Notes under the pieces: generated by a model
Databases searched by the model: none
What the model was told of the DNA's origin: nothing
Seen by the model: the letters and a program-made list of their open reading frames with translations, nothing else
Part shown: positions 19,104 to 58,686 of the stretch, in pieces
How positions within the stretch are numbered: the first letter of the stretch is position 1
How the letters are laid out: each line of letters opens with the position of its first letter
Assembly (NCBI GenBank): GCA_964625745.1
Contig: CAZVCJ010000004.1
Location: forward strand, 1,289-65,288
Direction: 5' to 3'
Length of the DNA: 64,000 bases
Origin: an uncultured Anaerolineae bacterium
Lineage (GTDB): Bacteria > Chloroflexota > Anaerolineae > VGOG01
Translations under genes and position numbers: made by a program

Positions 19104-19390
19104 CGACGCTTGTCCTGAGCTTGTCGAAGGGAAGCAACCCCCTCCGTGGTGGAGATTGCTTCGCCACTCAGAAATCTCCCCTCACCCCTGCCCTCGCCCC
19201 AAGGGGGCGAGGGGGTAAGTTCCCTTTCCCTCGCAGGGAAAGGGTTGGGGCGAGGGGGCAAGTTCCCTTTCCCTCGCAGGGAAAGGGTTGGGGCGAGGGG
19301 GCAAGTTCCCTTTTCCTCGCAGGGAGAGGGTTGGGGCGAGGGGGCAAGTTCCCTCTCCCTCATAGGGAGAGGGTTAGGGTGAGGGTGAAA
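19085..19390. repeat. composite repeat filling the hisC-hisB spacer, including a 4 x 43-nt tandem array (19204-19375)
   Basis: Modules, in order: gtcattgcgag...tgtcctgagcttgtcgaaggga...gagattgcttcg, then 4 head-to-tail units (ggggcgagggggcaagttCCCTTTCCCTcgcAGGGAAAGGGtt) starting at 19204, 19247, 19290 and 19333. Each unit holds a 10-bp hairpin. Confidence 0.9.
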
Positions 19391-31320: not shown

Positions 31321-31394
31321 GGGCGAATAGCTCAGTTGGATAGAGCGCTTCCCTTACAAGGAAGAGGTCACAGGTTCAAGTCCTGTTTCGCCCA
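31321..31394 (+). tRNA. tRNA-Val (anticodon TAC)
   Basis: Hand-folded cloverleaf. Acceptor GGGCGAA/TTCGCCC, D arm GCTC-AGTTGGATA-GAGC, anticodon arm CTTCC-CTTACAA-GGAAG, T arm ACAGG-TTCAAGT-CCTGT, discriminator A. Followed by CC-T, so no complete encoded CCA. Confidence 0.9.
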
Positions 31395-43400: not shown

Positions 43401-45191
43401 TTCGGTCAGGTTATCCACCACCAACTGGAAGGGTGCATCGGCGGTGTAGGTGGTGTCGCCCTTGTAATACGGCGAGAGGTCCAGATTGTCGGGCACGTCG
43501 TCGTTGTCGTTGTCGCGGTCGAAGAGGTCGGGTGTGCCGTCGTTGTCCATGTCCGGTGGGAGAGCGCTTTCGGAGGCCCGGCCGGTGTTCCACTCGCGCC
43601 CGTCGTCAAGGCCATCCCTGTTGGTATCAAGCTCCGTGGGATCGCTGTACCACATCTTATCTTTGTAGGAGAAGCCGTTGATCTCCTCAGGATCCTCGAT
43701 GCCGTCGCTGTCGGAGTCGTCAGAGTCATCGGCGGTGCCCAGGATACATTCTTCGAAGTCGGTCAGGCCATCTTCGTCGGTGTCGCCGGTGTCATCGGGG
43801 TCACATTCGGGGGCGGAGGATTCGTTGTTGTCGTTGTTGTTGGAGGCAAGAGCAGGGAGTTGGATATTGGATATTGGGTATTGTGTATTGTGTGAGGTGT
43901 CTAGCGGGTTGAGGTTGGGATTCCAGTTGGGCTGGGTTAAGAGGGCTTCGAGGTCGCGCTGCATGTCGCTTTCCTGCTGAAGGGCTTCCTGTTCCTGGGC
44001 GCGTGTCTGCTGCTGCTCGAAGAATGCCGCCACCCGCAGGCTCTGCAACAGCGGCGAGAAAATCAGCGAGACGATCACGGTCACGGCCAACGCGATGTAC
44101 AGGCGACTGGAGCGTTTGTGGATCACAAGCATGATGGACAGAATCAGCGAGAAGACCAGTGGGATTGCAAAGCGGAGATCAGGGATTAGAGATTGGAGGT
44201 TGGAGATTGGAGACTGGAGATTGGGGGCTGCGGATCCTGACACCCCAGATCCGAAATCCGCATTCCGAAATCCGAAATCAATTGTCGCTTCGGCGCGGCT
44301 TTCCTGATCGTCCGGACCCGGTGGGAACTGGAGGCGCAGGATCTGGCGCAGAGGCAGGCCATCCGCACTGATCCACAGTTCGCCCTCGCCCGTCATCTTC
44401 ACGTAAGTCTTGGGCAGGTCCAGACTAACGCCGGGTGGCAGCTCCCCCTTCTCGGTCAGGTACTTCTCCAATTGGTCGCGCACATAAGCGGCGTAACTCC
44501 GCCCATCAACGTCAAACGTGAAACGTGAAATGTGAGGCGTGAGGCGTGAGTCCACGTTTTCACGCTTCACGTTCTTGGCCGCTGCCAGGAATGCCATGAA
44601 GTCGCCCTGGGGCGCGAAGAGGCCCGTGAAGTTGGGGATTTCCTGCCAGGCCTGCGTGTCCTGGCGGGCGTAGGCCCGGTCGCCATCCACCTTGATTTCC
44701 ACGCCGCTGCCGGGGTCCACCACGCTGCCGCCCTGCGACCACAAGGTCAGGTGCAGTTGCCGCTCGTGGAGGTCGGTTTCACCTTCCAGGTGCAGGGCTT
44801 CTTCTTTGCTCGTGCGGCCCACGTTGAGGATGGTGGGCTTGGGGATCACGGTCTGCTTGATGTCGGCCGTGAAGTGGTAGGCACCGGCCTGCTGGGCGCG
44901 CCGCCAGGCGGCCTGCACTGCGTGCTCTGGCGATGCCGCCGCAGTCACGGATGGCGCCTGGGCATACACCTGCTCGCTGGGAGCGCCCAGATCGGTGCTC
45001 TCCACAACCGATGCGAGCCGTGCCAGTGCGTCGTGAGCTCGCTCTCGGATTCGGTTTGCTCCTCCTTGCAGGGACGCGGCGATTGTGGGCAGTTCGCTGA
45101 GAACAGCCATCTGAGCGGCTAGTACCGCAACGCCAAGCACTACGGCGCACAATGCCAGAATCAGGCGATTGGGTGAGGATGGGTGCTTCAA
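31485..45191 (-). CDS. giant (4568 aa) membrane-embedded surface protein with TSP3-like Ca-binding repeats, LamG x2, Ig-like domains, a P-domain and a C-terminal TM anchor
   Basis: TTG start with GGAGG 10 nt upstream. Landmarks: N-terminal signal anchor; TM pair ~44045-44165; Asp-rich DxDxDG repeats ~43480-43830, ~40245-40612 and ~32030-32205; 5-7 TM helices ~41270-42010; two LamG/ConA-like domains ~37560-38850; PT linker ~35955-36075; proprotein-convertase P-domain-like ~32655-33040; C-terminus ...PVNRLELLASWLGLAALVVLAALAVALIWRRKT. Confidence 0.9.
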   Translation of the reverse strand: MKHPSSPNRLILALCAVVLGVAVLAAQMAVLSELPTIAASLQGGANRIRERAHDALARLASVVESTDLGAPSEQVYAQAPSVTAAASPEHAVQAAWRRAQQAGAYHFTADIKQTVIPKPTILNVGRTSKEEALHLEGETDLHERQLHLTLWSQGGSVVDPGSGVEIKVDGDRAYARQDTQAWQEIPNFTGLFAPQGDFMAFLAAAKNVKRENVDSRLTPHISRFTFDVDGRSYAAYVRDQLEKYLTEKGELPPGVSLDLPKTYVKMTGEGELWISADGLPLRQILRLQFPPGPDDQESRAEATIDFGFRNADFGSGVSGSAAPNLQSPISNLQSLIPDLRFAIPLVFSLILSIMLVIHKRSSRLYIALAVTVIVSLIFSPLLQSLRVAAFFEQQQTRAQEQEALQQESDMQRDLEALLTQPNWNPNLNPLDTSHNTQYPISNIQLPALASNNNDNNESSAPECDPDDTGDTDEDGLTDFEECILGTADDSDDSDSDGIEDPEEINGFSYKDKMWYSDPTELDTNRDGLDDGREWNTGRASESALPPDMDNDGTPDLFDRDNDNDDVPDNLDLSPYYKGDTTYTADAPFQLVVDNLTEDLPTFVEFQLRPTDPDHLWYAFNVLDWPQGDDQGQMQDTDGKTFYDLDHSTSHSPNDNGDVKLIPMLEIKTTGSPNNLPPQNDLEAYGISIMDLNEDGTDKAVYVPLVLVTEPKGSARVAFSGRMLYQPADQWGNAHQVRLVWVVQALVDVCERYEDGRCTSYEEKNEAEIVHTYDDEWKLTGLAVREDHGTDFAIVYEDPDVDDDLDDDSALMFLTRGLELTFLAGRDCEEWDEKDPDDPTDDECIRGNDELDITITEIYSRFNHTTNSGVSVTSTWRISDTAGNIMSVVTDTYPTMDEAVATVGMTEAVKILDDHFTPHVPVAPTLLFAREERFRSLNLDEDRVGASTITWSDDNHQLKLDLKPDDVEVQTVAGMNWAPYRYRDDAWEPYPIEDYWEELENRYEKDFADEYVDEEHPEDLRTGAVFVGQIYYLTLYTGVHVAVQSGGTLLTQKYQTSDRPIAAVMATFGAKAVVAVVQMWIMRNFLYSTKALEFLAQIVRSSQAGARGAIQPFGHTLGNLIAKWKNVGRWLGAKGAVTAGAMLVLAGLAVGVYFLTREYLGTNTEAQMAVHAIVGIALGYMLILSPLRMVVGMIRALTYSGVSVLSATTQVLKSSSQFIGMSRIAGLIGMIAGLGIVFGIFIYALCKNEGLRRGLGLSMLLAQTFAAAIVTIMLAVFSLTVIGAIIVGIMTLVDVLLWLTGAGFTITGVVTEAVAKTFFSFELAIDEEDDGLVKMGTLDSRLVNPERGMVPGAQFEFKTTITSTVIHELPREYWTSLYIWKYDKDQIRSTSFEYELDTKKKSMSTHLGDTNRVNPWHVSDAYEAWGRTFYKGWFDDDLSAISTVSEAGINRTVPLILSTGYALPGVECWAVLWVISWAIPVVVCVDRGLEGEADPADLGSNIVMDVFPNTLDEFVQVSGWASDLKFKDADGDGLMAQDYGGNDPDDTRWDTDGDGLSDAWELQMAAIRFDEGGYVFDPRDADTDGDGLSDQEEAFLGSDPNRPDTDGDGITDAAETEGWDFYYRYPEKTRIFSDPLNADADSDGMDDLFERTLHTECGKLDDESERRDCYNNNLFNPYIWNTNPIGVYTEVGDPDKVVKPTQTFPFTTTVQNNVETGSPLWVRGTTELEADPLTGFPLEMTFDIAKDKSQSLYTDLTVPAGTGNQTVTLTTDVKSQLHTPSVWAWDPWQTDSHATSYPKALSLAAVSVNGWNTAYAAVSREDYRVRGYRVSPAGITDSGVDVFAEAGWSATSEPAIACNDSGRCLVVYSYKNNYGTYWVTWRSATSNWGSLSLHQVESAGGECEAWGATVASDGDNFLVAWMRECSGDEQIKVRHVLANGDKSGGVLTLDSASNVSFPKLAWVGDRYQAVWERGSDIYTAYISGQSATEPEAVSASAASEWSPRIAYDPLSGRTLVIYTSRSGSNRSLRGRILAGSNTPDEFTVGNLSDQAGWEAAVSNDPVNGGWAVAWSLNGQYTVYSQGVGMNGELRGERGRTEAPGKSYLLDVTCAEPRIAALFHFDEEGDTACTFADSSGFDHDASCWQDYIPSGKEGKRGNAVYFEGHHETGGATFEEGAWIRAGGVGLSVSSYGITFWFKAECDTCGIYSVGDAAAFNYDDHDRDIYLLNGNLCAKLGEGNPNTTESEVICSSGKNFADGQWHHVANTFGGGVGGQHLYVDGKLRATGERSSSNLHTQSVIMGVAVGVQPCNTYGCDDKRFFKGYFDELTIYPRALSEGEVVDDYLGALVVYPFDEVSGAETFNNAARSGYGAAECSAGQCPQAGKEGIAYNAVKFDGTDDVITGADVPIAGSSFTIAFWAKREWTNRDEYIVSQGSAGSDRDLYIGFWSNNRFICAFDTTNYLVTSNQYSDTDWHHWACSYDFGTGQRTIYRDGVQVAQDTTARYYWGSGPLRIGKARWGNYFRGLVDELAVWPGVLSASEIKTLYQKVKALDDSVTECLVSRTTHDGEHLHINRTALHETTTPLGRSEQQVEDEVIVDGTLPTADITSLADDQHIGETGTLPIGGEARDNTYVTKVEVRVDGGAWQEADGAETWTWDWDTSAVGEGWHTLSVRANDPADNVGNPSSIGVFIDRTPPQLTVTEVRGKAWDDSQGRWWVWVKGTVEDSTNGSLYVLLQGQHRRRISPEEETHVRAGGGWTSLRFSAGDGSAHQWELNYALPAFDNEGNALPNPTGVYTLYMRARDDAGNYLPEAVYGVFEVDNTPPVADLQYMGPYTDAIACNDVTLTGVITDPGPVDSGVGILYVKFEPVAELWKSWYYYHSGRATLAESGWGITTTTWTYEMPDLEGFYELRLESHDVQPWPYHGGKAAVWNGMVDTAAPRAEPGLKWLSLPFGPTEVTCYVEDLNLDEDTFIGCPCPEDTWQRTYFHEISSWYSEVTTDTNRLVRITATCQVNGALPFLAHYVCDAYDHCTTATYPIDVPIPPTPTPWPPSEWGPTPTPTQEPTATPTPTPTPTPPPPLSLDSAVITPSNGTAFSTTAAFGVEGQAYAENYLQTLTVTVNSAPFYDTGWPDSPDPGAVTETTWTTSYTPLGEGYYTLNSEVSDWISQVQTTTHPITVTVDLQPPAPPTFDTTVITTARRAAQGAAVLSGNAADNFGVARVDVNPDDRGWGAASLTGEAISPVWRYTWPIDDADPDGVNYDVTARATDFASHTNATTATLLFDMQAPEAVTITLGYFDALGAYHPVEPRQTITDGNQLVIEWTLSTDGSGVAGYRVGWTDSPTNTEGTLYVPAGTAYSYTQVISEAHEVYAHVVSVDIYGNWQEQTEGPVYVDAPLTPDLIRTQLPTGLLYHGWMDSGCTQMGRSRSVADRAPTGASLSENQEFYATWDANALRLAWVGANWDVEGDLFIYLDTRSGGATQLLNPYGGPAPGIYLPGNLPELVTSEWPEFEQVRQSQTVAALQSMAMQADYLVWVVDSETAALWEWNEVTEGWDLSLWLTAEQYQWNNGITDLYLPFDLLDISNPATNSLGLLAAASEEDALRLWSAMPDRNLLNSVLAVNPLAAVQAATQRNFVLPNFYRWPSLGPLLCPYTEALQEPPTSQGFVDSDLRVELTVEPLGTTYALFGDDLFWQWETLFQESGPKSQQFTFLDNTHPPVGQDDVISYTLRVSNRGTSEALDVQAFVLAYSALSLPDGSRLDQGYMEYRQLNVGSVAPGDTVTVTFSGVVEVESNWRYERCVNVDGLPPEVCRQLLQWAILDGLVFDARNPFSGTTGIPTQPPLEWVWADHAVDIDPPQHVGIEVPKLVVGPGANTVRGYASDPSGVPLVEVEVRDPLGGVTVLNCPDAMPHDGQWTCEWNVVGSDGDEFELRARATDGYDHVSDWTIPWHVVVVDATPPTVALDDEARAAVDGQFIGPGGELLTGPISDTHSSVVVQVCREVDEETVCESAATLLSTQAPTDTAHFYDDVPTAPIVITGIITDVITATTYCGGGEITRTFTVADAFIVGDVDLGFNATHPAREEIVAELVSPSGTRALVIAPSGATYGFANYDVWLDDAASGPLHAPIQDDPTEPYFDRPAQPFSSLSTFIGEASQGMWQLNICDLNPLLNEGTYNRSRLSLTPQSAALSTAGRWNYPLPLIEGADGLSVTLSIYGLDGVGNRTPEPISLTYQLDVVPPALTTTVVITMMYELSPTLVLAGQVSDGGGVDEVYVRVDPPDAASYRDLTARVGEEWVYTLRPDTGGTYALWLEAHDLVGNIRLEGPLYVEVALSDSDGDSIPDDEDNCPLVSNPDQADADDDEAGDACDNCPNHANPGQEDLDGDGVGNACDDTANDLPTSTGSGSFTLQASAGYFSFIAGVGNPSPADAPSLDFLHGFFNFTIEGLAPGGTVEVTISLPDDMPPDTQYWKYGPTVANPANHWYQIPMGDNDGDNVITITITDGGDGDDDLVANGVITEPGGPGQPPPQPPVPVGGIIVPVNRLELLASWLGLAALVVLAALAVALIWRRKT
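43860..43894. repeat. period-7 array (TTGGATA type, 5 units) in-frame in the giant ORF
   Basis: Units: ttggata ttggata ttgggta ttgtgta ttgtgtg. Peptide: HNTQYPISNIQ. Confidence 0.9.
44172..44283. repeat. period-7 array of 16 units (TTGGAGA type switching to ATCCGAA type) in-frame in the giant ORF
   Basis: Units counted directly. Peptide: [33 protein letters not shown]. Confidence 0.9.
44507..44576. repeat. period-7 array (AAACGTG type, inverting to CACGTTT type) in-frame in the giant ORF
   Basis: Units: aaacgtg aaacgtg aaatgtg aggcgtg aggcgtg agtccac gttttca cgcttca cgttctt. Confidence 0.9.
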
Positions 45192-47162: not shown

Positions 47163-47582
47163 ATGAGTGAGCTTCGCTTGCATGAGACAGAACTCGTGAA
47201 CAAGGACGGGCAAAGGATATGTCTGGCCTACGAAGAGGTGGGCGATATCCTTGAAATCGTGTTCGGCGATGTCGAGGCCACCTGTGCCATCGAACTGACG
47301 GATAACATCGTACTGCGCTTTCACCGTGAACAAGGCCGCGCCGCTGGCCTCACCATCCTCGACTTCTCCATTCTTACCTCTCCAACCGAACTGGGAGTTC
47401 GCAGCTTCGCCCTCACCGGCCTGGACGACCTGCCAGAAGAGCTATGGGAGACGGTGGTGCGTATCATCACCACACCGCCCGTCAACCAGTTCCTCAAGGT
47501 CACGACCTTCTACGCTTCTCCTGCCGATCAAGTCCCCCTGACCTATGTCGAAGGCCCCAGCGAGCTGGTCATGGTGGCATAG
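47163..47582 (+). CDS. DUF2283-like protein
   Basis: ICLAYEEVGDILEIVFGD...IVLRFHREQGRAAGLTILDFS. The ORF track starts at 47139; ATG 47163 is preferred. Confidence 0.5.
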   Translation: MSELRLHETELVNKDGQRICLAYEEVGDILEIVFGDVEATCAIELTDNIVLRFHREQGRAAGLTILDFSILTSPTELGVRSFALTGLDDLPEELWETVVRIITTPPVNQFLKVTTFYASPADQVPLTYVEGPSELVMVA

Positions 47583-47661
47583 TTTGAATCCACTGAATTA
47601 TGAAAAGAGCCCTTTGTCTCTCGACATCGGGCTCTTTCGTTATCACCAACTCATCGAAGCT

Positions 47662-49113
47662 TCAGTCAGGCTTCCACCGCAACTTCGGTTGCCTGGCCGC
47701 TCTGACCTCGTCCAGCCGCGTGACGGGGGTAGTTTGGGGCGCTCCGTGCAAGATGTCGGGGTTCTCCTGGGCTTCCCTGGCGATGTTGAGCATGGCCTCG
47801 GCGAAGGCGTCCAGGGTCTCCTTGCTCTCGGTCTCGGTAGGCTCGATCATCAGGGCCTCAGGCACGATGAGGGGGAAGTAGACGGTGGGCGGGTGAAAAC
47901 CGTAGTCCATCAGCCGCTTGGCTATGTCCAGCGTGTGGACGTCGGGGGCCTGCGACAAGGGTCCCGATAGCACGAACTCGTGCATGCAGGTGCGGTCGTA
48001 GGGCAGCGGGTAAACCTTCCTGAGCCTGGCCAGGAGGTAGTTGGCGGCCAACACCGCGTCCTCGCTGACCTGCCTCAAGCCCTCGGCTCCCAGCATCCTG
48101 ATGTAGGTGTAGGCCTTGATGAACACGCCAAAGTTGCCGTAGAAGGCCTTGACCCGGCCGATGGAGGCTTCGGGCATCTCCAGGTGGTAGGTTGGATATT
48201 GGATATTGGAGATTGTAGATTGGACTGCGATTTGGCCAGGCAAGTACTTTGCCAGTCGCTCTGAGGCGCCGACGGGGCCGGAGCCGGGTCCGCCCCCGCC
48301 GTGGGGGGTGGAGAAGGTCTTGTGCAGATTGTAGTGCAGCACGTCGAAGCCCAGGTCGCCGGGCCTGGCGATGCCCAACAGGGCGTTCATGTTGGCTCCG
48401 TCGCCATACATCAGGCCGCCGCACTGGTGGACGATTTCACAGACCTCCAGCACGTTCTCCTCGAACAGGCCCAGGGTGTTGGGGTTGGTCAGCATCAGGC
48501 CGACCACCGTGTCGTCGCAGTGGGCCTTCAGTTCCTCCAGGTGCACGTTGCCCCGCTGGTCGGATTTGATCTCCACCACCTGGTAGCCGCTCATGGCGGA
48601 GGAGGCGGGGTTGGTGCCGTGAGCCGAGTCGGGTATGAGGACTTTGGTGCGCTTTGTATCACCTCGCTCCTCGTGGTAAGCTCGCATCACCAGGATACCG
48701 GTGAACTCGCCGTGGGCCCCGGCCGCGGGCTGCAGGCTCACCGCTGCGAAGCCACCGATCCCCTTCAGGTACTCCTGCAGCTCGTACATGAGCCTCAGGT
48801 TGCCCTGGACAGTGCAGTGATCCTGATAGGGATGGGTGCGGGTGAAGCCGGGGAGCTTCGCTGCCTCCTCGTTAATCTTAGGATTATATTTCATGGTACA
48901 GGAGCCCAGCGGGTAGAAGCCGGTGTCCACGGCGTGGTTGAGCTGGGAGAGGTGGACGTAGTGGCGCATCAGGTCAATCTCGCTGACCTCAGGCAGCGGG
49001 AGGTCTTTCCGCAACAGCTCTTGCGGCAGCTTGGTCGCAGGCACATCGAGTTCTGGCAGGAAAACGGCCTTCCGGCCTGGCGAGCTGATCTCGAAAATCA
49101 AATGCTCGGTCAT
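47662..49113 (-). CDS. gcvPB: glycine dehydrogenase (decarboxylating) subunit 2
   Basis: 483 aa. [16 protein letters not shown] (PLP lysine), [23 protein letters not shown]. Confidence 0.95.
48185..48226. repeat. period-7 array (TTGGATA type, ~6 units) in-frame in gcvPB
   Basis: Units: tggtagg ttggata ttggata ttggaga ttgtaga ttggact. Peptide: [13 protein letters not shown]. Confidence 0.9.
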
Positions 49114-50501
49114 GGCGTCACCTCCTCCAAAGCCTCTACCAGGCTGTCTATCTCGGTCCTGGTGTTCATCTCCGTCACGCAGAGGAGCATGTGATTCTCC
49201 AGATGGGGATAGTCACGGCCCAGGTCGTAGCCGCCGATGATGCCCCATTCCAGCAGTGCCTGGTTGATCTCGCTGGGCGGCCTGGGGCAGCGGACGACGA
49301 ACTCTTTGAAGAAGGGCTTGTCTCCCACCAGCTCGAAGCCGGGGATGGCGGCGATCTGCCTGGCAGCGTAGTGGGCCTTGTGATAGCAAAGCTCGGCCAC
49401 CTGGCGTAGCCCGCTCTTTCCCAGGGCCGCCAGGTAGGCCCCGGCCGCCAGAGCACAGAGGGCCTCGTTGGAGCAGATGTTAGAGGTGGCTCTCTCGCGA
49501 CGGATGTGTTGCTCACGAGCCGACAGGGTCAAGACGAAGCCCCGTCGTCCTTCGGTATCCACTGTCTCGCCGACCAGCCGCCCCGGCATCTTGCGCATGT
49601 ACTCCTCCCGACAGGCGAAGAGGCCCAGATACGGCCCGCCGAAGTTGAGGGGGTTGCCCAACGGCTGACCCTCTCCCACCACGATGTCGGCCCCGCATTC
49701 GCCCGGAGGGGTGAACAGGCCCAGGGAGATAGGATCCACTGCGACCACGAGAAGCGCCCCGGCCTCGTGTGCCGCATCAGCTAATCTGTTCAATCCGTTC
49801 TCAGAATCCACTGACAGCAACTGGCCAAGGAAGTCTGGCTGCTGGATGATCAAGCAGGCGGTGTCGTCATCGAGTTGGAGGTTGGAGGTTGGAGGTTGGA
49901 AGTTGGAAGTTAGAGGTTGGGAGTTGGAACTCGAAACCCCAAACCCCAAACTCGAAACTTCCAGTTCTGGGCCTGGTGTGTAGGTGCGCAGGGTGGCGCG
50001 GTACTCAGGGTGCACGGTGGGGGAGACGACGATCTTGCGCCGTTTGCCACGGGAGACGTTCACTGCCATGATTGCGGCCTCGGCCAGGCTGGTGGCTCCG
50101 TCGTAGTGGGAGGCGTTGGCTACCTCCATGCCCGTGAGGGCGCAGACCATGCTCTGGTACTCGAAGATGGCCTGCAGCGTGCCCTGGCTGATCTCAGGCT
50201 GGTAGGGGGTGTAGGCGGTGTAGAACTCCGAGCGGCCGGTGATGTGACCCACCACACTGGGCACGAAGTGGTTGTAGGCCCCCGCGCCCAGGAAGCAGGC
50301 GTGGTGGTCGAGGTCGGCGTTCTCCTCGCTCATGCTTCTCAGCTCCGCCAGGATCTCCAGCTCGGATAGGGGAGGGGGCAGCTTAAGCTCAGGATAGCGC
50401 ACACTCTCTGGCACATCCAGGAAGAGGTCAGCGACGGTCTCCACCCCAATCTCGGCCATCATCGCCGCCCGGTCGGGGTCGGTATGGGGGATGTAGGACA
50501 T
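49110..50501 (-). CDS. gcvPA: glycine dehydrogenase (decarboxylating) subunit 1
   Basis: 463 aa. [33 protein letters not shown]-like ([19 protein letters not shown]). Confidence 0.95.
49874..49964. repeat. period-7 array of 13 units (GTTGGAG x8, then CTCGAAA/CCCCAAA x5) in-frame in gcvPA
   Basis: Units counted directly. Peptide: [28 protein letters not shown]. Confidence 0.9.
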
Positions 50502-50899
50502 CAGTGGCCTCCTTCCTTTTCCTCCGCGGCCACGTGCTCTTGATATTGCTCAGGGGTCAGCAGGGCGTCCAGTTCCGAGAGATCGCTGGGGGTGAACTGG
50601 ACGAACCAGCCCTCGCCGAAGGGATCGTCGTTGACTAGCTGAGGGGAAGACAGCGCCTCATTGATCTCAGTGATCTCCCCGCTGATAGGCATATAGACGT
50701 CGGCAGCGGTTTTAGCCGATTCCACAACAGCGAAGACCTCGCCCTGGTCGAAGACGTCGCTCACCTCAGGCAGCTCCACGTAGACGACGTCGGAGAGCTG
50801 AGACTGAGCGTAGTCGGTGATGCCCGCCGTGGCCAGGTTGCCGACGACGCGCACCCATTCGTGAGTCTTCACGTAGCGGCAATTCTTATCTACTTTCAT
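50501..50899 (-). CDS. gcvH: glycine cleavage system H protein
   Basis: 132 aa. YVKTHEWV, VESAKTAADVYMPISGE (lipoyl-lysine motif). Confidence 0.95.
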   Translation of the reverse strand: MKVDKNCRYVKTHEWVRVVGNLATAGITDYAQSQLSDVVYVELPEVSDVFDQGEVFAVVESAKTAADVYMPISGEITEINEALSSPQLVNDDPFGEGWFVQFTPSDLSELDALLTPEQYQEHVAAEEKEGGH

Positions 50900-50956
50900 T
50901 TTTGCATCTCCTTTCTTTTGGTCAGATAGTCCTTGGTCGGATGGTCATTGGTCATT

Positions 50957-53900
50957 CTACTCTTCTGCCACAGGGAAGCGGGTGAGAACTGTAGCCCACT
51001 CCTGGAGGAGCATCTTGTCGCCCAAAGAGAGCTCTTCCACCGGCTTGGTGGGTGGGACTTTGTCGTGGGGGAGGGGGATGATGCCGATTTGCACTCCCTC
51101 CCGGTTGTATTTCTGGTCAACGTAGGCCAGGCCAACCTGGAACCCTTCGGTGTCCAAGGCGCAACTGGTGACGCGGCCTATGTACTTGCCTCGCTTGTCA
51201 ACCACCGGGTCTCCCAGCTTGGCCATCCTCACCCCCTTCTCGTCCATGCGGAAACGAAGCAGCTCCATGTTCCTGGTGGCTTCTTTTTCCAGCAGGGTTT
51301 TCCTGCCGATGAAGTAGGGCTTGTGGAACTTCACGTAGGAGCCAAAGCCGGCCTCGATGGGAGAGATGTTGTACGGCCCGGCCAGATCGTGTCCGTGCAG
51401 CGGCAGGCCGGCCTCGGTTCTGGTCGAGTCTCTGGCGGCCAGGCCCGCTGGCTTCAGGTCATAATCCCGGCCTTTCTCCAGCAGCAGATTCCACATCCTG
51501 GGAGCGTTGTCGGGGTGCAGGTAGAGCTCGTAGGCGATGTCCTCTCCGGTGTAGCCGGTGCGGGACACGATGAGCTCCATGCCCGCCAACTCCGTCTCGA
51601 TGAACTCGGTTCGGCTGATCCGGGCCAGCTTCTCTCGCAGCTTTTCATCTTCAGTCAAGCTCTGGAGGATGGCCAGGGAATTGGGGCCCTGGATGGCCAA
51701 GTCAACCCGCTGGTCGTCCCCTGACGCCGGATCCTTCAAGTCGCGGATGATGGCGGGACCCTCGATCTCGATGTCCGGATGCTCTCTGTCTATCAGGCAT
51801 TTGCCGGAGTTGACGGCGTTCAGCCAGGCCAGGTCTTTCTCGGCGTTGGAGGCGTTGATCACCAGCATGTAGCGGTCCGCCGCCCGGCGGTAGATGAACA
51901 CGTCATCAATCACGTTGCCATCGGGGTCGAGGAGGTAGGAGTATTGAGATTGCCCATCCCCGATCCAGCGCACGTAGTTGGACGTGACCGCGTCGAGGAA
52001 AGCGGTGGCGTGCTCGCCGGCCACCTCCACCACTCCCATGTGAGCCACGTCGAACAGCCCCGCCGTCTCCCTCACGGCTCTATGCTCCTCGCCGACGCTG
52101 GTGTACCAGACCGGCATCTCCCATCCAGCGAAGGGTATCACTTTCTTCGTTAGCTTCAGATGCTCTTCGTAGAGGACGGTTCGCTTGAGCTCGCCTTCTT
52201 CTTGCCACTGCCACTCCTCCTTCTCCACCTCGGACCTGACGCTTTCCAGGCTCTTCTGGCCGACGAAGTAGGGCTTGGAGACGTGGAACAGGGAATCGTG
52301 GCCCGCTTGATAGAGGGAGAGGCCGATCGGAGTTTCGAGTTTCGAGTTTCGAGTTTCGAGTTTCGAGATTTTAGTTTCGAGTTTCGAGATTTGAGATTTG
52401 ATATTAGGTGTTGCATCTTCGTCTAGATCCTTCACCACCACCGGCCCCTCGACCTTGCGGAAGATGTCGTCTTCGTCGAACAGGATGTACCCGTCGGCGA
52501 GGCCCCGGAACCAGGCCTTCACCCTGTCGGTGTTCTCAGGATTGGTCATCACGACGTAGTGGTCACGGCCCCATTGGTCCGGCTCCAGGCGCAGGATGGC
52601 GATGCTATCAATGAGCTGCCCCTGGGCATCCAGCAGGAAGGAACGCTGGCTCTCGCCTGGTTGCAGCCTGGACACGTCGTTGGTGGAGACCTGCTGCAGG
52701 AAGGGCGTGGCCCTCTGGCCAATCACCTCCAGCAGTCCCATGTCTGACGTTTGACGTTTCACGTTTGACGTTTCACGTTTCACGCTCGACGTTTCACGCA
52801 AGAAGTAGTAATGTGGGTAGCCAATCCCCTGTGCTGGCGTCTCCACCTCCGCTCCCCTCGCCAGCTCTTCCACCTCAAGCTTCACTTCCTCCAGGATGTC
52901 CAGATCAATCTTCCCCCTCCACAGCGGCCCTGTCAGTCCGATGTAGCTGAAAGGCTTGACGTTGACGATGAGGCGGTGGATGAACTCGGCGATCTTGTCC
53001 ATTTCCGCCCTGCCCATCCCTCGCTGGGTGAGCCAGGGCGTACCCAGGCGGATGCCGCTGGCCTCGCTGGCGTCGGCGTCGTCGGGGATAGTGTTCTTGT
53101 TGACCACGATGCCCGCCAGGTCCAGGATGCGGGCTGCGATCTCGCCCTTGAGGGGGAAGCCCTCCGGGGACTTGAGGGGATTGAGGTCAATCACCAGGAG
53201 GTGGGTGTTCGTCCCGCCGTAGGCCAGCTTCAGGCCGCGCCTCTGCAGCCCGTCGGCCAGGGCCACGCAGTTCTCCACGATCCTGTGTTGCAGGCGTTTG
53301 AACTCTTCCGTCTGAGCTATCCTGGCGGCGACGGCCATGGCTGCGAACTTGTGCACGTGAGGTCCGCCCTGCCGACCGGGGAACACGGCGTTGTCTATCA
53401 GTTCGGCCAGGTCCTCGTCGGTGGTCATGATCACCGCTCCGCGCGGGCCGAAGAAGGTTTTGTGGGTGGTGAAGGTAGTGACGTCGGCGATGCCTACGGG
53501 ATTCGGGTAGGCGCCCGCTATGGCTAATCCTGCAGTGTGGGCGATGTCGGCCATGAGGAGCGCCCCGCAGGCGTCGGCGATCTCCCGGAACTTCTCCCAG
53601 TCGGGGGCCCAGGAATAGGAGGTGAATCCGCCCACGATGATCCTGGGCCTGTGCTCCAGGGCCAGCTCCATGATCTGGTCGTAGTCCAGCTTTTCGGTGG
53701 CCCTGCTGGCGGCGTAGGAGACCACGTTGTAGCGGCGGCCGGAGATGTTGAAAGGGCTGCCGTGGGTGAGGTGTCCGCCCTGGGGGAGAGCCAATCCCAT
53801 GATGGTGTCGCCTGGATCGAGGAGAGCGCTATAGACTGACAGGTTAGCGGGCGAGCCTGAGAGGGGCTGGACGTTCACGAAAATCTGGTCGGCGCTCACC

Positions 53901-54277
53901 CTCTCGTTGGCGAAACATGCAGCCACCCGCCTTTGGGCCAGGCACTCGATGAGGTCGGCGTATTCGACGCCCTTGTAGAACCGCCTGTCGGCGTAGCGCC
54001 TGTAGTTGGCCAGCTCGTGGTCGAACTGGAGGAGCAGTTCGATCTCGTCTCGGGTCATCTGCAGGCGGGGATAGCCCTCGGCGTAGATGTTGTTGAACAC
54101 GCTCCCCAGCGCCTCGCGAACCGGCTTGGGGCAGTAGCTCTCCGAGGGAATCATAATCAGCTTCCTGGCCTGCCTCTCCTCCTCGAAGGCGATCAGGTCG
54201 GCCACATCGGGATCCACCTCGGCCAGGTCCTTGCCGAAGACGAGGTCCCAATACTCTTGGCTTTTTTCTCTCTTCAT
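50957..54277 (-). CDS. fusion ORF: serine hydroxymethyltransferase + degenerate GcvT-like module + complete aminomethyltransferase (GcvT)
   Basis: aa 1-~490 SHMT (PSESYCPKPV, GGHLTHG, TTHKTFFGPRG). aa ~512-690 GcvT-like remnant (FLQQVSTNDVS...; ...FHVSKPYFVGQKSL). aa ~695-1106 GcvT (FAGWEMPVWY, GLFDVAHMG, VSRTGYTGE, KFHKPYFIGRKTL). Confidence 0.88.
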   Translation of the reverse strand: MKREKSQEYWDLVFGKDLAEVDPDVADLIAFEEERQARKLIMIPSESYCPKPVREALGSVFNNIYAEGYPRLQMTRDEIELLLQFDHELANYRRYADRRFYKGVEYADLIECLAQRRVAACFANERVSADQIFVNVQPLSGSPANLSVYSALLDPGDTIMGLALPQGGHLTHGSPFNISGRRYNVVSYAASRATEKLDYDQIMELALEHRPRIIVGGFTSYSWAPDWEKFREIADACGALLMADIAHTAGLAIAGAYPNPVGIADVTTFTTHKTFFGPRGAVIMTTDEDLAELIDNAVFPGRQGGPHVHKFAAMAVAARIAQTEEFKRLQHRIVENCVALADGLQRRGLKLAYGGTNTHLLVIDLNPLKSPEGFPLKGEIAARILDLAGIVVNKNTIPDDADASEASGIRLGTPWLTQRGMGRAEMDKIAEFIHRLIVNVKPFSYIGLTGPLWRGKIDLDILEEVKLEVEELARGAEVETPAQGIGYPHYYFLRETSSVKRETSNVKRQTSDMGLLEVIGQRATPFLQQVSTNDVSRLQPGESQRSFLLDAQGQLIDSIAILRLEPDQWGRDHYVVMTNPENTDRVKAWFRGLADGYILFDEDDIFRKVEGPVVVKDLDEDATPNIKSQISKLETKISKLETRNSKLETPIGLSLYQAGHDSLFHVSKPYFVGQKSLESVRSEVEKEEWQWQEEGELKRTVLYEEHLKLTKKVIPFAGWEMPVWYTSVGEEHRAVRETAGLFDVAHMGVVEVAGEHATAFLDAVTSNYVRWIGDGQSQYSYLLDPDGNVIDDVFIYRRAADRYMLVINASNAEKDLAWLNAVNSGKCLIDREHPDIEIEGPAIIRDLKDPASGDDQRVDLAIQGPNSLAILQSLTEDEKLREKLARISRTEFIETELAGMELIVSRTGYTGEDIAYELYLHPDNAPRMWNLLLEKGRDYDLKPAGLAARDSTRTEAGLPLHGHDLAGPYNISPIEAGFGSYVKFHKPYFIGRKTLLEKEATRNMELLRFRMDEKGVRMAKLGDPVVDKRGKYIGRVTSCALDTEGFQVGLAYVDQKYNREGVQIGIIPLPHDKVPPTKPVEELSLGDKMLLQEWATVLTRFPVAEE
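52330..52399. repeat. period-7 array (GAGTTTC type, 10 units) in-frame inside the GcvT-like remnant
   Basis: gagtttc x4, then gagattt tagtttc gagtttc gagattt gagattt gatatta. Peptide: NIKSQISKLETKISKLETRNSKLETP. Confidence 0.9.
52747..52802. repeat. period-7 array (ACGTTTC/G type, 8 units) in-frame at the SHMT/GcvT-like junction
   Basis: Units: acgtttg acgtttc acgtttg acgtttc acgtttc acgctcg acgtttc acgcaag. Peptide: RETSSVKRETSNVKRQTSD. Confidence 0.9.
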
Positions 54278-54436
54278 TTGTCAGCACTCCTTTGTGTGTG
54301 GCTAACTTGACATTGTTAGATTCCTGATAAGACTATCTGGTCTTGGACGTGGCCGCCAAACAACACTACATCGAATTGAAAGAAACGAATTCTTTGCCCT
54401 CCATTCGCTTTGGCTCATGTGGGTTTAGATTTGATT

Positions 54437-54473
54437 GGGGCGCGGGGTAAATCCCCAGCCTGCCCCGCGCCCC
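54437..54473 (-). terminator. GC-rich hairpin downstream of the RCC1 gene (weak terminator candidate)
   Basis: GGGGCGCGGGG-15 nt-CCCCGCGCCCC. No clear U-tract. Confidence 0.3.
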
Positions 54474-54493
54474 GCACTTGTAGTTTGGGACCT

Positions 54494-54994
54494 CTACCGC
54501 AGGATCAGCGGCAGGTACAGGTAGTAGCCCCAAAGCACATTCACCGGCGTCGTGCGCTGGGTGGTCGTGCCATCCCCGAGTTGACCAGACGAGTTACGGC
54601 CCCAGCACTTGCCCCCGCCGCCGGTCAGGGCGCAGGTGTGATACCAACCCGCCGCAATCGCGGCCACACCGCTCGCCAGGCCGCTCACGTTCACGGGCGT
54701 CGTGCGCCGGGTGGTCGTGCCGTCGCCGAGTTGACCATAGGTGTTGTCGCCCCAGCACTTGACCCCGCCGCCGCTGGTGAGGGCGCAGGTGTGATACCCA
54801 CCCCCCGCAATCGCGGTGGCGTTGGCGGCGATGGCCAACGGCAGTCCGCCAAGTGGCGCGCCTAGAGGGTTTCGGCCAGGAGAAGTGGCAGCCAGGCCTG
54901 GGACCTGGGCGTGGACGCTGCCGGCCAGCAGGGTCAGCAACACCCATACACCGATCAAACTGTTCAGACGCTTGAAATGACAAATGGGTTTCAT
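54494..54994 (-). CDS. small secreted RCC1-repeat protein
   Basis: 166 aa with a signal peptide. Two repeats of [31 protein letters not shown]. Ends [11 protein letters not shown]. Confidence 0.7.
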
Positions 54995-55188: not shown

Positions 55189-55560
55189 CTACGACCTGAA
55201 TTCCTGCAGGAAGCGAATGGTGTTGCGTATCTCATCAGCAGGCAGGGTGTTAAGCAGATTCAGTGTGCAGCACAGCAACTCGCCAAACTGACGACCGGTT
55301 AGGTGGACGGAGACAATAATGCCGGAGTGTTCTTTCCCAGCCTCGTACCATTCACGGGCATAGCGCACAAAATCCTTGATGTTGAAGGTCAGAAAGGCCC
55401 GTCCTTCGGCGGCAGCGTAATCCAATTGTTCCTCATCGGACAAGCCCATTCTACCGACTTCCTGAACGGCCACAGCATCAAAACCCCGCCGTCGCAGAGC
55501 AGCAGCCAGTTGAGGCCCTTTGGAGACATCCTCGTCAATGAGCAAGCGAATCTTGGCCAA
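55189..55560 (-). CDS. DUF5615 family PIN-like toxin candidate
   Basis: 123 aa: RLLIDEDVSKGPQLAAALRRRGFDAVAVQEVGRMGLSDEEQL..AAAEGRAFLTFNIKDF. Confidence 0.75.
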   Translation of the reverse strand: MAKIRLLIDEDVSKGPQLAAALRRRGFDAVAVQEVGRMGLSDEEQLDYAAAEGRAFLTFNIKDFVRYAREWYEAGKEHSGIIVSVHLTGRQFGELLCCTLNLLNTLPADEIRNTIRFLQEFRS

Positions 55561-55569
55561 GGTCTTACC

Positions 55570-56163
55570 TCATGGTCTGGCTGGAAGCAACTGACCTTTT
55601 GCACCGATCTTAAGGCTATGTTTCTCCATTACACGCTCCAGGCGATTCTCCTCGATGAGCGCCTCTATCTCCTCCTGATGGTCCAGGTAAAAACTGATGG
55701 CATCAAAAACGCCAGCAGGAGGTAGGTGGGGATAGGCTTCCAGAATTTCATCGAGTGTCTCGCTGGCCTTGTAATGCAACACGATGGCGCGCACCGGCAC
55801 GCGCGTTCCCTTGATGATCGGTTCGCCACCGGCAATGCCAGGCACGCGAACAATGTAAGGATGTTCCGTGGGCCTTGTTTCTAACTCAGCTACAAGCGGG
55901 CTTGCCTTTCCCATGATGCTCGTCTCCGTATCCACTTCGCCACGCTTATACTCCGCTCTCGCTTCCCTGATACTGGCCAAGTATTCGGGGTCGGACGACT
56001 CGCTGACGGTCTCCATCAAGTTCTCGAAGTCATCAGCACTTAGCAACACAACTATGGGGAGACCATCCTTCTCAATGAGCAGGCGATCTTTGCTGCGCCA
56101 TATCTCCTCAGCCAGTCGTTCAAAATCCATCTTGGCTTGTTCAAGACCGATCATCTTTATCAT
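55570..56163 (-). CDS. antitoxin candidate: Phd/YefM-like N-terminal domain fused to DUF433
   Basis: The ORF track starts at 56238, inside a heptamer array. ATG 56163 follows GAGGAGGA. N-terminal: ...LLIEKDGLPIVVLLSADDFENLMETV. C-terminal: IAGGEPIIKGTRVPVRAIV..Y.....EILEAYPHL. Confidence 0.7.
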   Translation of the reverse strand: MIKMIGLEQAKMDFERLAEEIWRSKDRLLIEKDGLPIVVLLSADDFENLMETVSESSDPEYLASIREARAEYKRGEVDTETSIMGKASPLVAELETRPTEHPYIVRVPGIAGGEPIIKGTRVPVRAIVLHYKASETLDEILEAYPHLPPAGVFDAISFYLDHQEEIEALIEENRLERVMEKHSLKIGAKGQLLPARP

Positions 56164-56177
56164 CTCATCCTCCTCTT

Positions 56178-56261
56178 CTGGAAGTTGGAAGCTGGAAAGT
56201 GGAAATTGGAGAACCAATCTCCAATATCCAATATCCAATATCTAACCTCCAGCTTCTCAGT
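56178..56261. repeat. period-7 array of 12 units with a strand switch at ~56213 (NTGGAAR x5, then TCCAATA-type x7): a long imperfect palindrome at a gene junction
   Basis: Units: ctggaag ttggaag ctggaaa gtggaaa ttggaga accaatc tccaata tccaata tccaata tctaacc tccagct tctcagt. Followed by tcagtgtt x2, which encodes the last residues of ORF 56257-57411. Confidence 0.9.
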
Positions 56262-57430: not shown

Positions 57431-57465
57431 GGGGGATGTTGGATATTGGGTATTAGAGATTATAG
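57431..57465. repeat. intergenic period-7 array (TTGGATA type, 5 units)
   Basis: Units: gggggat gttggat attgggt attagag attatag. Confidence 0.85.
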
Positions 57466-57495: not shown

Positions 57496-58686
57496 CTATT
57501 GGGTTGTCTCGGTGAGAGGATGCACAGCCACGACCTGCCCGTCTTCGAGGTAGACCCTGGTCACCCGCGGCAGGATGCTGGTGGTCACTTCGTAGTTGAT
57601 GGTTTCGGCCCAGGCAGCCACTTCCTCAGCGCTGATCGCGTCGTTGCCTTGCCGCCCCAGGAGCACCACTTCGTCATCCTGCTGCACGTCGGGGATGTGG
57701 CTGGCTTTCACCACAAACTGATCCATGCAGATCCGTCCTACGATGGGGGCGCGCCGGCCATGGATGAGCACCTGCCCTCTGTTGGAGAGAAGGCGATGGT
57801 AGCCGTCGCCGTAGCCGACGGGCACCAGGGCCACGCGGGTAGGCTCGCTGGTGGTATAGGTGCAGCCGTAGCTGATGCAGGAGCCAGTGGGGAGGGTACG
57901 CACTCGGGCCACCCGGCTCTTGAGGGTCATGGCCGGGCGCAGGGGGATGGTCGGCTTCTCTTCACTTGAAGGACGCAGGCCATAGAGGGCAATGCCGCAG
58001 CGCACCATGTCCAGGTGTGTCTGCGGCAGGGTCAGAGTAGCTGCACTGTTGGCCACGTGTTTGATAGGGATGATGAAACCCGCTCCCTCTAGTTTCTTCA
58101 CCACTTCGAGGTAGGTCTGAAACTGTTGAAAGGTGTATGCCTTGTCCGCCGCGTCGGCCATGGCGAAGTGGGTGTAGATGCCCTCCAGGATGAGGCCGGG
58201 CAGTTCGGATATGGCCTGGACGAAGTCTGCCACTTCATCAGGCAGCAGCCCGAAGCGACCCAATCCCGTGTCCACCTTGACGTGGATAGGGAGCACTTTC
58301 CCTTGATGAAGAGCTGCGGCAGAGAGGGCCTGGGCCTGTTCGGGGGTATTCACGGTGGGGGTTAAATCCCAGCGGACGATGGTTTCCGCCTGGGCTGGCA
58401 GAGTGTAGCCCATGATCAAAACGGGAGCCGTGATCCCCGCTTGTCGCAACTGGACGCCCTCCAGAGTGCGATGCACCGCCAGGCGGCTGGCCCCATTATC
58501 CAGGGCCGCCTCAGCTACCGGTACCGCGCCATGGCCGTAGCCGTTGGCCTTGACCACGGCCATCAACTCTGTCTTCTCCCCAATGAGTCGCTTGAGCTCT
58601 CGTGCATTATGAGCGATGGCGTCCAGGTCTATCTCGGCCCAGGTCAGGCTGACGTTTGACGTTTCACGTTTGACGTTTACATCCAT
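57496..58686 (-). CDS. alr: alanine racemase
   Basis: 396 aa. WAEIDLDAIAHN, AVVKANGYGHG (PLP lysine), YGLRP, GYGDGY. N-terminal 12 residues are encoded by a heptamer array. Confidence 0.92.
   Translation of the reverse strand: MDVNVKRETSNVSLTWAEIDLDAIAHNARELKRLIGEKTELMAVVKANGYGHGAVPVAEAALDNGASRLAVHRTLEGVQLRQAGITAPVLIMGYTLPAQAETIVRWDLTPTVNTPEQAQALSAAALHQGKVLPIHVKVDTGLGRFGLLPDEVADFVQAISELPGLILEGIYTHFAMADAADKAYTFQQFQTYLEVVKKLEGAGFIIPIKHVANSAATLTLPQTHLDMVRCGIALYGLRPSSEEKPTIPLRPAMTLKSRVARVRTLPTGSCISYGCTYTTSEPTRVALVPVGYGDGYHRLLSNRGQVLIHGRRAPIVGRICMDQFVVKASHIPDVQQDDEVVLLGRQGNDAISAEEVAAWAETINYEVTTSILPRVTRVYLEDGQVVAVHPLTETTQ
58651..58678. repeat. period-7 array (GACGTTT x4) forming codons 3-12 of alr
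   Basis: Units: gacgttt gacgttt cacgttt gacgttt. Peptide: MDVNVKRETSNVS. Confidence 0.9.

Follow-up and report, generated by a model that had tools for sequence, protein, structure and literature searches.

Does a single gene of an uncultured Anaerolineae bacterium encode both serine hydroxymethyltransferase (SHMT) and the aminomethyltransferase (T-protein, GcvT) of the glycine-cleavage system (GCS), and were the short tandem repeats within that gene the cause of the fusion? The question is raised by a 64,000-nucleotide (nt) stretch of contig CAZVCJ010000004.1 (assembly GCA_964625745.1), called the window below, in which one open reading frame (ORF) of 1106 amino acids (aa) comprises an SHMT, a shortened GcvT-like segment and a complete GcvT. 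We consider it probable that this ORF truly belongs to a large three-module family that is apparently uncharacterised, that its product is a bifunctional SHMT/T-protein, as predicted from its modules, and that the heptamer arrays it contains are later fillers of deletion scars. The gene, its parts and the operon that it heads are as follows, in window positions.

50957..54277, minus strand: fusion gene SHMT / GcvT-like remnant / GcvT, 1106 aa, ATG start (ORF list, Pfam and NCBIfam matches)
54287..54292, minus strand: Shine-Dalgarno sequence AAGGAG, 9 nt 5' of the ATG (direct sequence reading)
52823..54277, minus strand: SHMT module, aa 1-485, including a C-terminal extension at aa ~440-485 (PF00464, NF000586)
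53984..54067, minus strand: family-specific SHMT insertion of ~26-28 aa between YAEGYP and RFYKG, aa 71-98 (HMMER alignment break at residues 71/98)
52745..52804, minus strand: heptamer array 1, unit GAAACGT/CAAACGT on the coding strand, encoding SSVKRETSNVKRQTSD, aa 492-511 (Tandem Repeats Finder 52745-52798)
52418..52744, minus strand: part A of the middle module, aa 512-620, formed by the contiguous GcvT sub-domain with the Met56 and Asp101 positions and the motif VKAWFRGLADGYILFDEDDIFRKVEGPVVV
52328..52417, minus strand: heptamer array 2, units GAAACTC/AAATCTC on the coding strand, encoding approximately NIKSQISKLETKISKLETRNSKLET, aa ~621-650 (Tandem Repeats Finder 52330-52405)
52208..52327, minus strand: part B of the middle module, aa 651-690, with the helix region of SKPYFVGQKSL and the EKEEWQWQEE linker
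50960..52207, minus strand: complete aminomethyltransferase GcvT, aa 691-1106 (TIGR00528, PF01571)
50501..50899, minus strand: gcvH, H-protein, 132 aa (PF01597 on an identical contig, and ORF list)
49110..50501, minus strand: gcvPA, P-protein subunit 1, 463 aa (PF02347)
47662..49113, minus strand: gcvPB, P-protein subunit 2, 483 aa (PF02347 and PF21478)

The original prediction, made from the letters and their ORFs, had described these three parts within one 1106-aa ORF, and Pfam and NCBIfam matches together with self-homology inside the protein (E 6e-21) bear this out; the motifs it quoted are all present in the translation. It had also placed the gene at the head of the glycine-cleavage operon, and gcvH, gcvPA and gcvPB do lie directly downstream, in that order and on one strand, with a 57-nt gap followed by overlaps of 1 nt and 4 nt. 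A scan of 47300-54600 showed no terminator-like sites inside the operon and no convincing promoter. No glycine riboswitch was found upstream of the fusion gene, either in the whole window at the gathering threshold or, at E <= 1, within 54200-54600. The region 5' of the fusion gene measures 216 nt (54278-54493). A GC-rich hairpin (GGGGCGCGGGG...CCCCGCGCCCC) is present at 54440-54480, directly after the upstream RCC1-repeat gene (54494-54994), which has an internal repeat of 150 nt in 1.9 copies. Within the 64-kb window there are no separate glyA or gcvT genes elsewhere.

The architecture search that the original prediction had proposed recovered hundreds of fused homologues. With the entire protein as query, more than 120 full-length homologues were recovered; they measure 1090-1278 aa, have SHMT and GCV_T, extend down to 52% identity, and their source names include Anaerolineae, Chloroflexota and Candidatus Aerophobetes; a second search, seeded from a Leptolinea metagenome-assembled genome (MAG), returned at least another 120 clusters of ~1042 aa (Anaerolineaceae class), so that there are more than 240 full-length homologue clusters in all. 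When the 179-aa middle module was used as query against 1.84 billion cluster representatives (clustered at 50% identity), 153 matched at E <= 1e-10 and 40 at E <= 1e-30. In the species-representative set (one genome per GTDB species), at least 600 stretches match middle-module patterns, at least 522 were confirmed by tblastn, and 80 loci were kept for inspection. These 80 are mostly from Anaerolineae/Chloroflexota, with some in MAGs labelled Fraserbacteria, Bipolaricaulota, Spirochaetota, Thermodesulfobacteriota, Myxococcota and Planctomycetia, and nearly all consist of one ORF of ~1040-1280 aa with the SHMT motif for pyridoxal 5'-phosphate (PLP), the GYPHY junction and the GcvT motif FAGWEMP; most of the family is without arrays. 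Among the matches listed, L005 is the closest species-representative locus, and it shares both the architecture and the operon of the window gene. The family signature, formed by invariant columns in alignments A1-A3, is SHMT, GYPHY, W-x5-D-x-Y-x2-F-D-x6-K-x2-G-P and a full GcvT, all of which the window protein carries.

Some cluster representatives of 600-705 aa (P0264, P0266, P0281, P0334, P0347) contain the middle module and GcvT without SHMT. Most of them start within a conserved motif and resemble fragments; the N-termini of P0281 and P0334 are plausible, and these two might be split or unfused forms.

In public databases family members are named "glycine cleavage system aminomethyltransferase GcvT" or "glycine hydroxymethyltransferase", for example TKJ47164.1 (Candidatus Aerophobetes) and MCA1953686.1 (Anaerolinea sp.), and full-text literature searches found no paper describing an SHMT/GcvT fusion. 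The fold search with the full model retrieved SHMT chains only, with a query template modelling score (TM-score) of at most 0.35, and thus no solved structure covering more than one module. Both enzymes are textbook proteins; their fusion sits in the databases under automatic names and is apparently an uncharacterised architecture.

The commonest form of the family is ~1220 aa long, with ~346 residues between GYPHY and FAGW that make up a near-complete duplicate of the GcvT folate-binding part. In the window sub-lineage the middle module has ~230 residues, compared with ~345 in the long form, and in a deep Anaerolineaceae clade (loci L037-L081, ~1042 aa) it has ~177 residues from GYPHY to FAGW. 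In a neighbour-joining tree built on SHMT and GcvT columns only, short-middle lineages are nested within long-middle clades at least five times. Intermediates exist within the window clade: in P0037, whose middle module has 323 residues, most of the lost segments are still present, part of them replaced by heptamer-coded pieces and the repeat-coded FDWAQGR, and P0027 retains the ALFDLSDMG end of the N-terminal segment. P0037 was basal to the short forms in 0/200 bootstraps (the clade itself appeared in 200/200), and the short P0038 grouped with long forms in 199/200; these placements imply that the sub-domain was lost repeatedly or that alleles were exchanged by recombination. To judge from this distribution, the fusion is old and widespread, and both it and the internal duplication predate the window lineage.

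With respect to function, the fusion protein would be the T-component of the glycine-cleavage system of its own operon and at the same time the SHMT. The T site would make 5,10-methylene-tetrahydrofolate (methylene-THF) from aminomethyl-lipoyl H-protein, and the neighbouring SHMT site would use it together with a second glycine to yield serine, or the reverse, with tetrahydrofolate (THF) recycled locally; the net reaction would be 2 Gly + NAD+ + H2O <-> Ser + CO2 + NH3 + NADH. We propose the coupled mode because it is the sole flux mode in which one module makes what the other consumes, the usual rationale for a fusion, and coupling the production of 5,10-methylene-THF to its use, as originally suggested, seems a reasonable idea. 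In plant mitochondria glycine decarboxylase and SHMT are functionally coupled as separate proteins that share methylene-THF and convert 2 Gly to Ser + CO2 + NH3; whether SHMT and the T-protein are physically coupled there is debated. For bifunctional folate enzymes such as DHFR-TS (dihydrofolate reductase joined to thymidylate synthase), the idea behind fusion is that the folate intermediate is kept local. Since bacterial SHMTs are dimers with shared active sites, the fusion is expected to be dimeric with two T modules. The conserved core of the middle module would serve as a non-catalytic structural spacer or docking element, and the array peptides as flexible fillers, mobile simple repeats being tolerated in dispensable loops. 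The arrays would mark, and may have helped to cause, the loss of a dispensable sub-domain; they would not be the cause of the fusion.

Gene neighbourhoods at the 80 loci give modest support for a link to serine, and no operon partner is universal in the family. Downstream genes include a class I/II aminotransferase in 19 of 45 cases; these belong to the Anaerolineaceae class, and the gene is often directly 3'. Other neighbours are an upstream alpha/beta hydrolase (~11/49, often preceding Anaerolineaceae-type fusions), a 2-hydroxyacid dehydrogenase (3 cases) and a formate-THF ligase (1 case).

Several points weigh against the proposed account. The single-polypeptide status and both activities are predictions from sequence, and channelling of methylene-THF is speculative. 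gcvH or gcvP genes occur within 8 kb at only ~12 of the 80 loci, and linkage to such an operon is therefore not characteristic of the family. The SHMT module has Leu139 (NVQPLSGSPAN, codon 53861-53863) in place of the PLP-stacking His (E. coli His126, in NVQPHSGSQAN), and the 26-aa insertion falls within the active-site loop. Finally, the short lineages P0048, P0058 and P0069 lost the same middle-module segments without any arrays, which means that arrays are not required for the loss of the sub-domain.

A bolder form of the account would make the family a natural metabolon, in which a captive folate shuttles between the T site and the SHMT site with the middle core as bridge or folate holder; a related reading would have the in-frame arrays of this lineage actively remodel the protein, replacing and deleting a dispensable sub-domain by recombination or slippage between arrays. 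We regard these two readings as unlikely. If true, the first would provide an experimental system for the long-debated channelling of methylene-THF between glycine cleavage and SHMT, and the second would make simple repeats agents of domain loss instead of passive insertions.

The predicted bifunctional protein depends first on the identity of its SHMT module. Pfam SHMT (PF00464) matches aa 95-433 with E 8.5e-120 and 400 bits against a threshold of 27, the NCBIfam SHMT subfamily NF000586 gives 428 bits, above its cut-off of 335, and the best match among SHMTs of known structure has E 1.5e-101 (HMMER); the Foldseek TM-score is ~0.9, normalised by the SHMT target. The module is 38-44% identical to characterised bacterial SHMTs. 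The PLP lysine is K273, within TTHKTFFGPRG at aa 270-280 (TTHKT). Residues Y65, E67, Y101, D244, H247, R279 and R410 are invariant in 61 homologues and align with SHMTs in the PDB as the equivalents of what are presumably Tyr55, Glu57, Tyr65, Asp200, His203, Arg235 and Arg363 in E. coli numbering; the equivalents of His228 and Lys229 and the folate-contacting NKN motif are conserved as well. The C-terminal extension and the GYPHY junction motif are conserved across the whole family, as is the insertion, in which M74, L89, R93, R94, Y95 and D97 are invariant and AlphaFold2 confidence is low (aa 71-98).

The SHMT-like module could nevertheless be unconventional, a relative of the aldolase or transaldolase type or a folate-independent variant, in which case there would be no coupling to serine synthesis. 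Consistent with this, the Leu at position 139 is invariant in all 61 aligned fusions, so that the PLP-stacking His expected of an SHMT is missing from each of them, the neighbouring GSQAN has become GSPAN or GAAAN, the family-specific 26 aa are inserted in the loop with Tyr55, Glu57 and Tyr65, and there is a weak NCBIfam match, far under its cut-off, to fluorothreonine transaldolase. The subfamily score, the identity to characterised SHMTs and the conservation of the remaining catalytic positions argue against such a variant, and so does the fusion partner, since a T-protein that depends on folate points to folate chemistry. We therefore find an unconventional enzyme improbable; because of the His to Leu replacement and the insertion in the active-site loop, the kinetics or specificity of the SHMT may still differ.

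In the C-terminal module the best stretch of Pfam GCV_T (PF01571) covers aa 702-979 with E 5.4e-89, and there is a second stretch in addition; the gcvT equivalog TIGR00528 gives 310 bits (cut-off 235.85), its alignment reaching position 341 of 362, and NF001567 scores 340 bits against 300. The GCV_T_C match at aa 1006-1065 is weak (18.9 bits, under the gathering score of 25.9); AlphaFold2 models beta-strands at aa 1004-1066 with a predicted local distance difference test score (pLDDT) of ~87-90, and the pLDDT of the whole module is ~90. The THF-contacting residues of human GcvT are Met56, Asp101, Tyr197, Glu204 and Arg233, of which Asp101 is essential for catalysis (PMC9551070). Human numbering was checked by a 100% sequence match to PDB 1WSR and aligned to both GcvT-type modules of 105 fusions: in the C-terminal module the equivalents of all five residues and of Asn117 are kept in 105/105. 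KFHKPYFIGRKTL occurs at aa 983-995 of this full copy. The module also has an insertion (NSGKCLIDREHPDIEIEGPAIIRDLKDPASG; AWLNAVNSGKCLIDREHPDIEIEGPAIIRDL) that is mirrored in the middle module. Because AWLNAVNSGKCLIDREHPDIEIEGPAIIRDL matches the middle-module motif and canonical GcvT is without the insertion, an internal duplication fits.

A genuine fusion gene might still yield two or more proteins, through internal initiation or proteolysis at the array-encoded linkers, so that the fusion would be genetic only. Both arrays encode low-confidence, probably disordered peptide that could be protease-sensitive: in the AlphaFold2 model pLDDT falls below 50 at aa 492-511, 621-627 and 642-647, which are array-encoded parts. 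A Met also follows array 1, and the original prediction had named it as a possible internal start. This residue, Met512, aligns with the Met56 position of GcvT, is replaced by L, V, R or T in close relatives and has no Shine-Dalgarno sequence before it, so the proposed start is unlikely, and no start codon or ribosome-binding site is evident where the GcvT module begins. Most family members are array-free and have folded sequence at these positions, and the full model (mean pLDDT 80.9) has a predicted TM-score (pTM) of 0.75, which would suggest a defined multi-module assembly. Separate products thus appear quite improbable, and a single bifunctional polypeptide is preferred.

The middle module (aa 512-690, ~180 aa) aligns with the protein's own GcvT at 35% identity over 111 aa, the source of the self-homology given above, and in a second BLASTP segment around SKPYFVGQKSL (E 3e-05); it contains FLQQVSTNDVS at aa 526-536 and FHVSKPYFVGQKSL at aa 664-677. 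Its best-conserved element is VKAW-x-RGL-x-DGY-x-x-FD-x-x-D-x-x-x-K-x-x-GP, and in part B F664, K668, Y670, F671 and G673 are invariant or nearly so. The profile of the long-form middle module aligns with residues 31-280 of Thermotoga maritima GcvT 1WOO (stretch E 4e-23), the folate-binding part without the C-terminal barrel, and no family member has a C-terminal barrel on its middle module. In comparison with the long form, the window protein is missing ~45 aa where the module begins and ~100 aa at its centre, and array 1 and array 2, respectively, fall exactly in those gaps; at the array-1 site, ~45 aa resembling GcvT are present in long-form relatives of 75-78% identity. In CtIba57, a protein with the GcvT fold, residues 90-192 form a contiguous domain that holds the Met56 and Asp101 equivalents, and the other domain is discontinuous, with an N-terminal strand and residues 195-248 (PMC9551070). 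By homology, the window middle module retains the contiguous sub-domain and the helical region of SKPYFVGQKSL and has lost the whole discontinuous sub-domain. In a separate model of the middle region, a core of ~109 residues superposes on GcvT structures at 1.5-2.3 A, and in the full model the retained core has a pLDDT of 85-90.

This remnant could in principle be a second active aminomethyltransferase or THF-binding site. In the long forms position 101 is Asp or Glu in 62/62 and Arg233 and Glu204 are mostly kept; the Asp100 and Asn117 equivalents are nearly invariant across the 105 fusions, and the core is under purifying selection. Against this, four of the five canonical THF/catalytic residues are gone from the window protein, which has Met at the Met56 position, Ser558 at that of the catalytic Asp101, and the Tyr197, Glu204 and Arg233 positions deleted with the sub-domain. 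Of the 105 fusions, 63 have Asp at the Asp101 position of the middle module, 31 have Ser and 10 have Glu, and the full residue set is present in the middle module of only 14/62 long forms, compared with 105/105 for the C-terminal module. Although homologous to GcvT, the window middle module thus lacks the complete three-domain fold, the catalytic Asp and most of the THF residues of that enzyme. An active second site seems very improbable to us, and, given the Ser at position 101 and the three deleted positions, the residue pattern indicates that the module is not an active aminomethyltransferase in the window protein.

Non-catalytic does not here imply neglected. In close relatives, parts A and B are 87% and 85% identical, the catalytic modules 91%, and arrays 1 and 2 75% and 35%; in distant relatives, parts A and B are 62% and 53% identical, the catalytic modules 67-70% and the arrays 17-20%. 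Since the values for close relatives approach those of the catalytic modules, the retained core is, on this measure, under purifying selection and not drifting freely. The term "decayed copy" used in the original prediction is accordingly apt in that the module is truncated and non-catalytic, and misleading in that its retained core is not drifting. By these comparisons an internal GcvT duplication has lost one sub-domain, and the middle module is what remains of it, conserved and non-catalytic.

The arrays had been placed at the SHMT/middle junction and in the middle of the GcvT-like module, and Tandem Repeats Finder locates them there, at aa 494-511 and ~625-650. The further proposal was that the arrays may have made the fusion through erasure of a stop codon and spacer; on this view, heptamers expanding between the genes would have removed the stop codon of glyA and merged it, in this lineage, with a gcvT-like gene downstream. 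The exact position of the arrays at the junction and inside the middle module invites this explanation, and arrays are frequent in the genome and usually inside ORFs. Yet the fused architecture is found in hundreds of species from several phyla without heptamer-coded peptide; the junction there is GYPHY followed by a GcvT N-terminal segment, ordinary conserved sequence, as is the middle module of most relatives. The array-free homologues refute an origin of the fusion in the arrays, which we now find hardly credible.

What the arrays do instead can be seen among the close relatives. The array-1 segment is 14, 21, 28 or 35 aa long in 29/40 relatives, and the lengths of the array-2 segment in close relatives form the series 20/27/34 and 31/38; as judged from these lengths, copy number changes in steps of 7 aa, that is 21 nt or three heptamers, the pattern to be expected if selection preserves the frame. 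Among the close relatives P0001-P0040 one array site can hold heptamers of different families, which implies rapid turnover under reading-frame selection. In the clade of the window the arrays are at least fillers of deletion scars, and they may take part in the deletion itself.

That the ORF is a sequencing or assembly artefact, with a frameshift or collapsed repeat hiding a stop between genes that are really separate, is a reading to which we give next to no weight and which we reject: simple tandem repeats are error-prone in short-read assemblies, but 14 contigs from several independent ENA assemblies carry the identical 1106-aa ORF in the same gene neighbourhood, a single frame is kept through both arrays in 40 relatives (82-100% identity) with indels in multiples of 7 aa, and the sequence before and after each array is homologous to the relatives in one and the same frame. 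For these reasons the ORF at 50957-54277 is, as far as the contigs and relatives can tell, a genuine single gene, and the missed stop or frameshift named at the outset as a possible refutation did not materialise.

Heptamer arrays are a general trait of the window, where 11 of the 13 detected sit inside ORFs, for example in gcvPA, gcvPB, the N-terminus of alr and a 4568-aa ORF. The arrays in gcvPA (49873-49959) and gcvPB (48191-48218) are in frame. Besides the two arrays of the fusion gene, the following were located.

2387-2407, 21404-21424, 43859-43893, 44184-44218, 44508-44535, 48191-48218, 49873-49959, 58649-58676: heptamer arrays inside ORFs
56214-56241, 57434-57454: intergenic heptamer arrays

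The organism evidently tolerates heptamer arrays in permissive loops, to judge from where they lie. The unit families GAAACGT, GAAACTC and CCAACCT/CCAATAT recur across the window, and the array peptides VKRETSN and ISNLQPP recur in unrelated proteins. A second, GC-rich type of short repeat is found in frame in P0009, P0025, P0027 and P0037 (FDWAQGR, LRLSSGQAS, LRPGSGQAS). In the window a 31-nt repeat of 2.2 copies (TCCAACCCTTCGACCACGCTCAGGACAGGCC) within 2404-2471 adjoins a heptamer array. A literature search on heptamer arrays in Chloroflexi turned up only cyanobacterial, Beggiatoa and other heptamers.

Some further features of the window were recorded. A 43-nt tandem repeat of 4.2 copies with 93% matches (GGGGCGAGGGGGCAAGTTCCCTTTCCCTCGCAGGGAAAGGGTT), whose unit has an internal inverted repeat, lies at 19204-19385. 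The 4568-aa ORF (31485-45191, minus strand) has matches to TSP3_bac and Laminin_G_3 and a faint one to Big_3_3 (on the identical contig). Close to its N-terminal end it carries three heptamer arrays, and just past its 3' end lies a tRNA gene (31321-31394, plus strand). A probable toxin-antitoxin pair (55189-56238, minus strand), consisting of a PhdYeFM_antitox and DUF433 protein and a DUF5615 protein, sits between the fusion operon and the alr/amidohydrolase genes.

The family is of interest for several reasons. A covalent fusion in hundreds of Chloroflexota and other uncultivated bacteria is a direct test case for coupling between the GCS and SHMT, and might be put to use in engineered one-carbon pathways of glycine and serine, for example the reductive glycine pathway. 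As the database names are one-sided ("GcvT" or "glycine hydroxymethyltransferase"), reconstructions from MAGs may report glyA or gcvT as missing. A duplicate that was repeatedly shrunk to one sub-domain offers a clean example of the evolution of a pseudo-enzyme domain, and in-frame arrays that sit at the scars and change in three-unit steps illustrate how simple repeats persist inside essential genes.

Compared with known systems, the SHMT module shares its fold, the PLP lysine and the other checked catalytic residues with bacterial GlyA (E. coli 1DFO, Thermus thermophilus 2DKJ); unlike GlyA, it has Leu in place of the PLP-stacking His, a 26-aa insertion and a C-terminal extension of ~50 aa, and it is joined to GcvT modules. 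The C-terminal module resembles GcvT (1WOO, 1WSR, 1VLO) in the five residues, the equivalog score and the gcvH/gcvP neighbourhood, and differs from free-standing GcvT (~365 aa) in the insertion NSGKCLIDREHPDIEIEGPAIIRDLKDPASG and in the partial self-duplicate that precedes it. The middle module is like YgfZ/Iba57, DMGDH and SoxA in having the GcvT fold without the full catalytic equipment, and the fold search ranks those proteins after GcvT. Dimethylglycine oxidase (DMGO) and sarcosine oxidase (SoxA) are precedents for a GcvT-like domain fused to an enzyme, there to capture a one-carbon unit. Unlike in those proteins, the partner here is an SHMT plus a complete T-protein, and the remnant is without a whole sub-domain and the C-terminal barrel.

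The nearest comparison is with the fusions already in the databases, such as TKJ47164.1 and MCA1953686.1. The order of the modules, the junction motifs and the middle-module motif are alike; the window protein differs in its cut middle module and in the heptamer-coded filler at both scars, and its linkage to a gcvH-PA-PB operon is common to only a minority of the fusion family. By these likenesses and differences, the window protein is a lineage-specific, reduced version of that family, with heptamer arrays.

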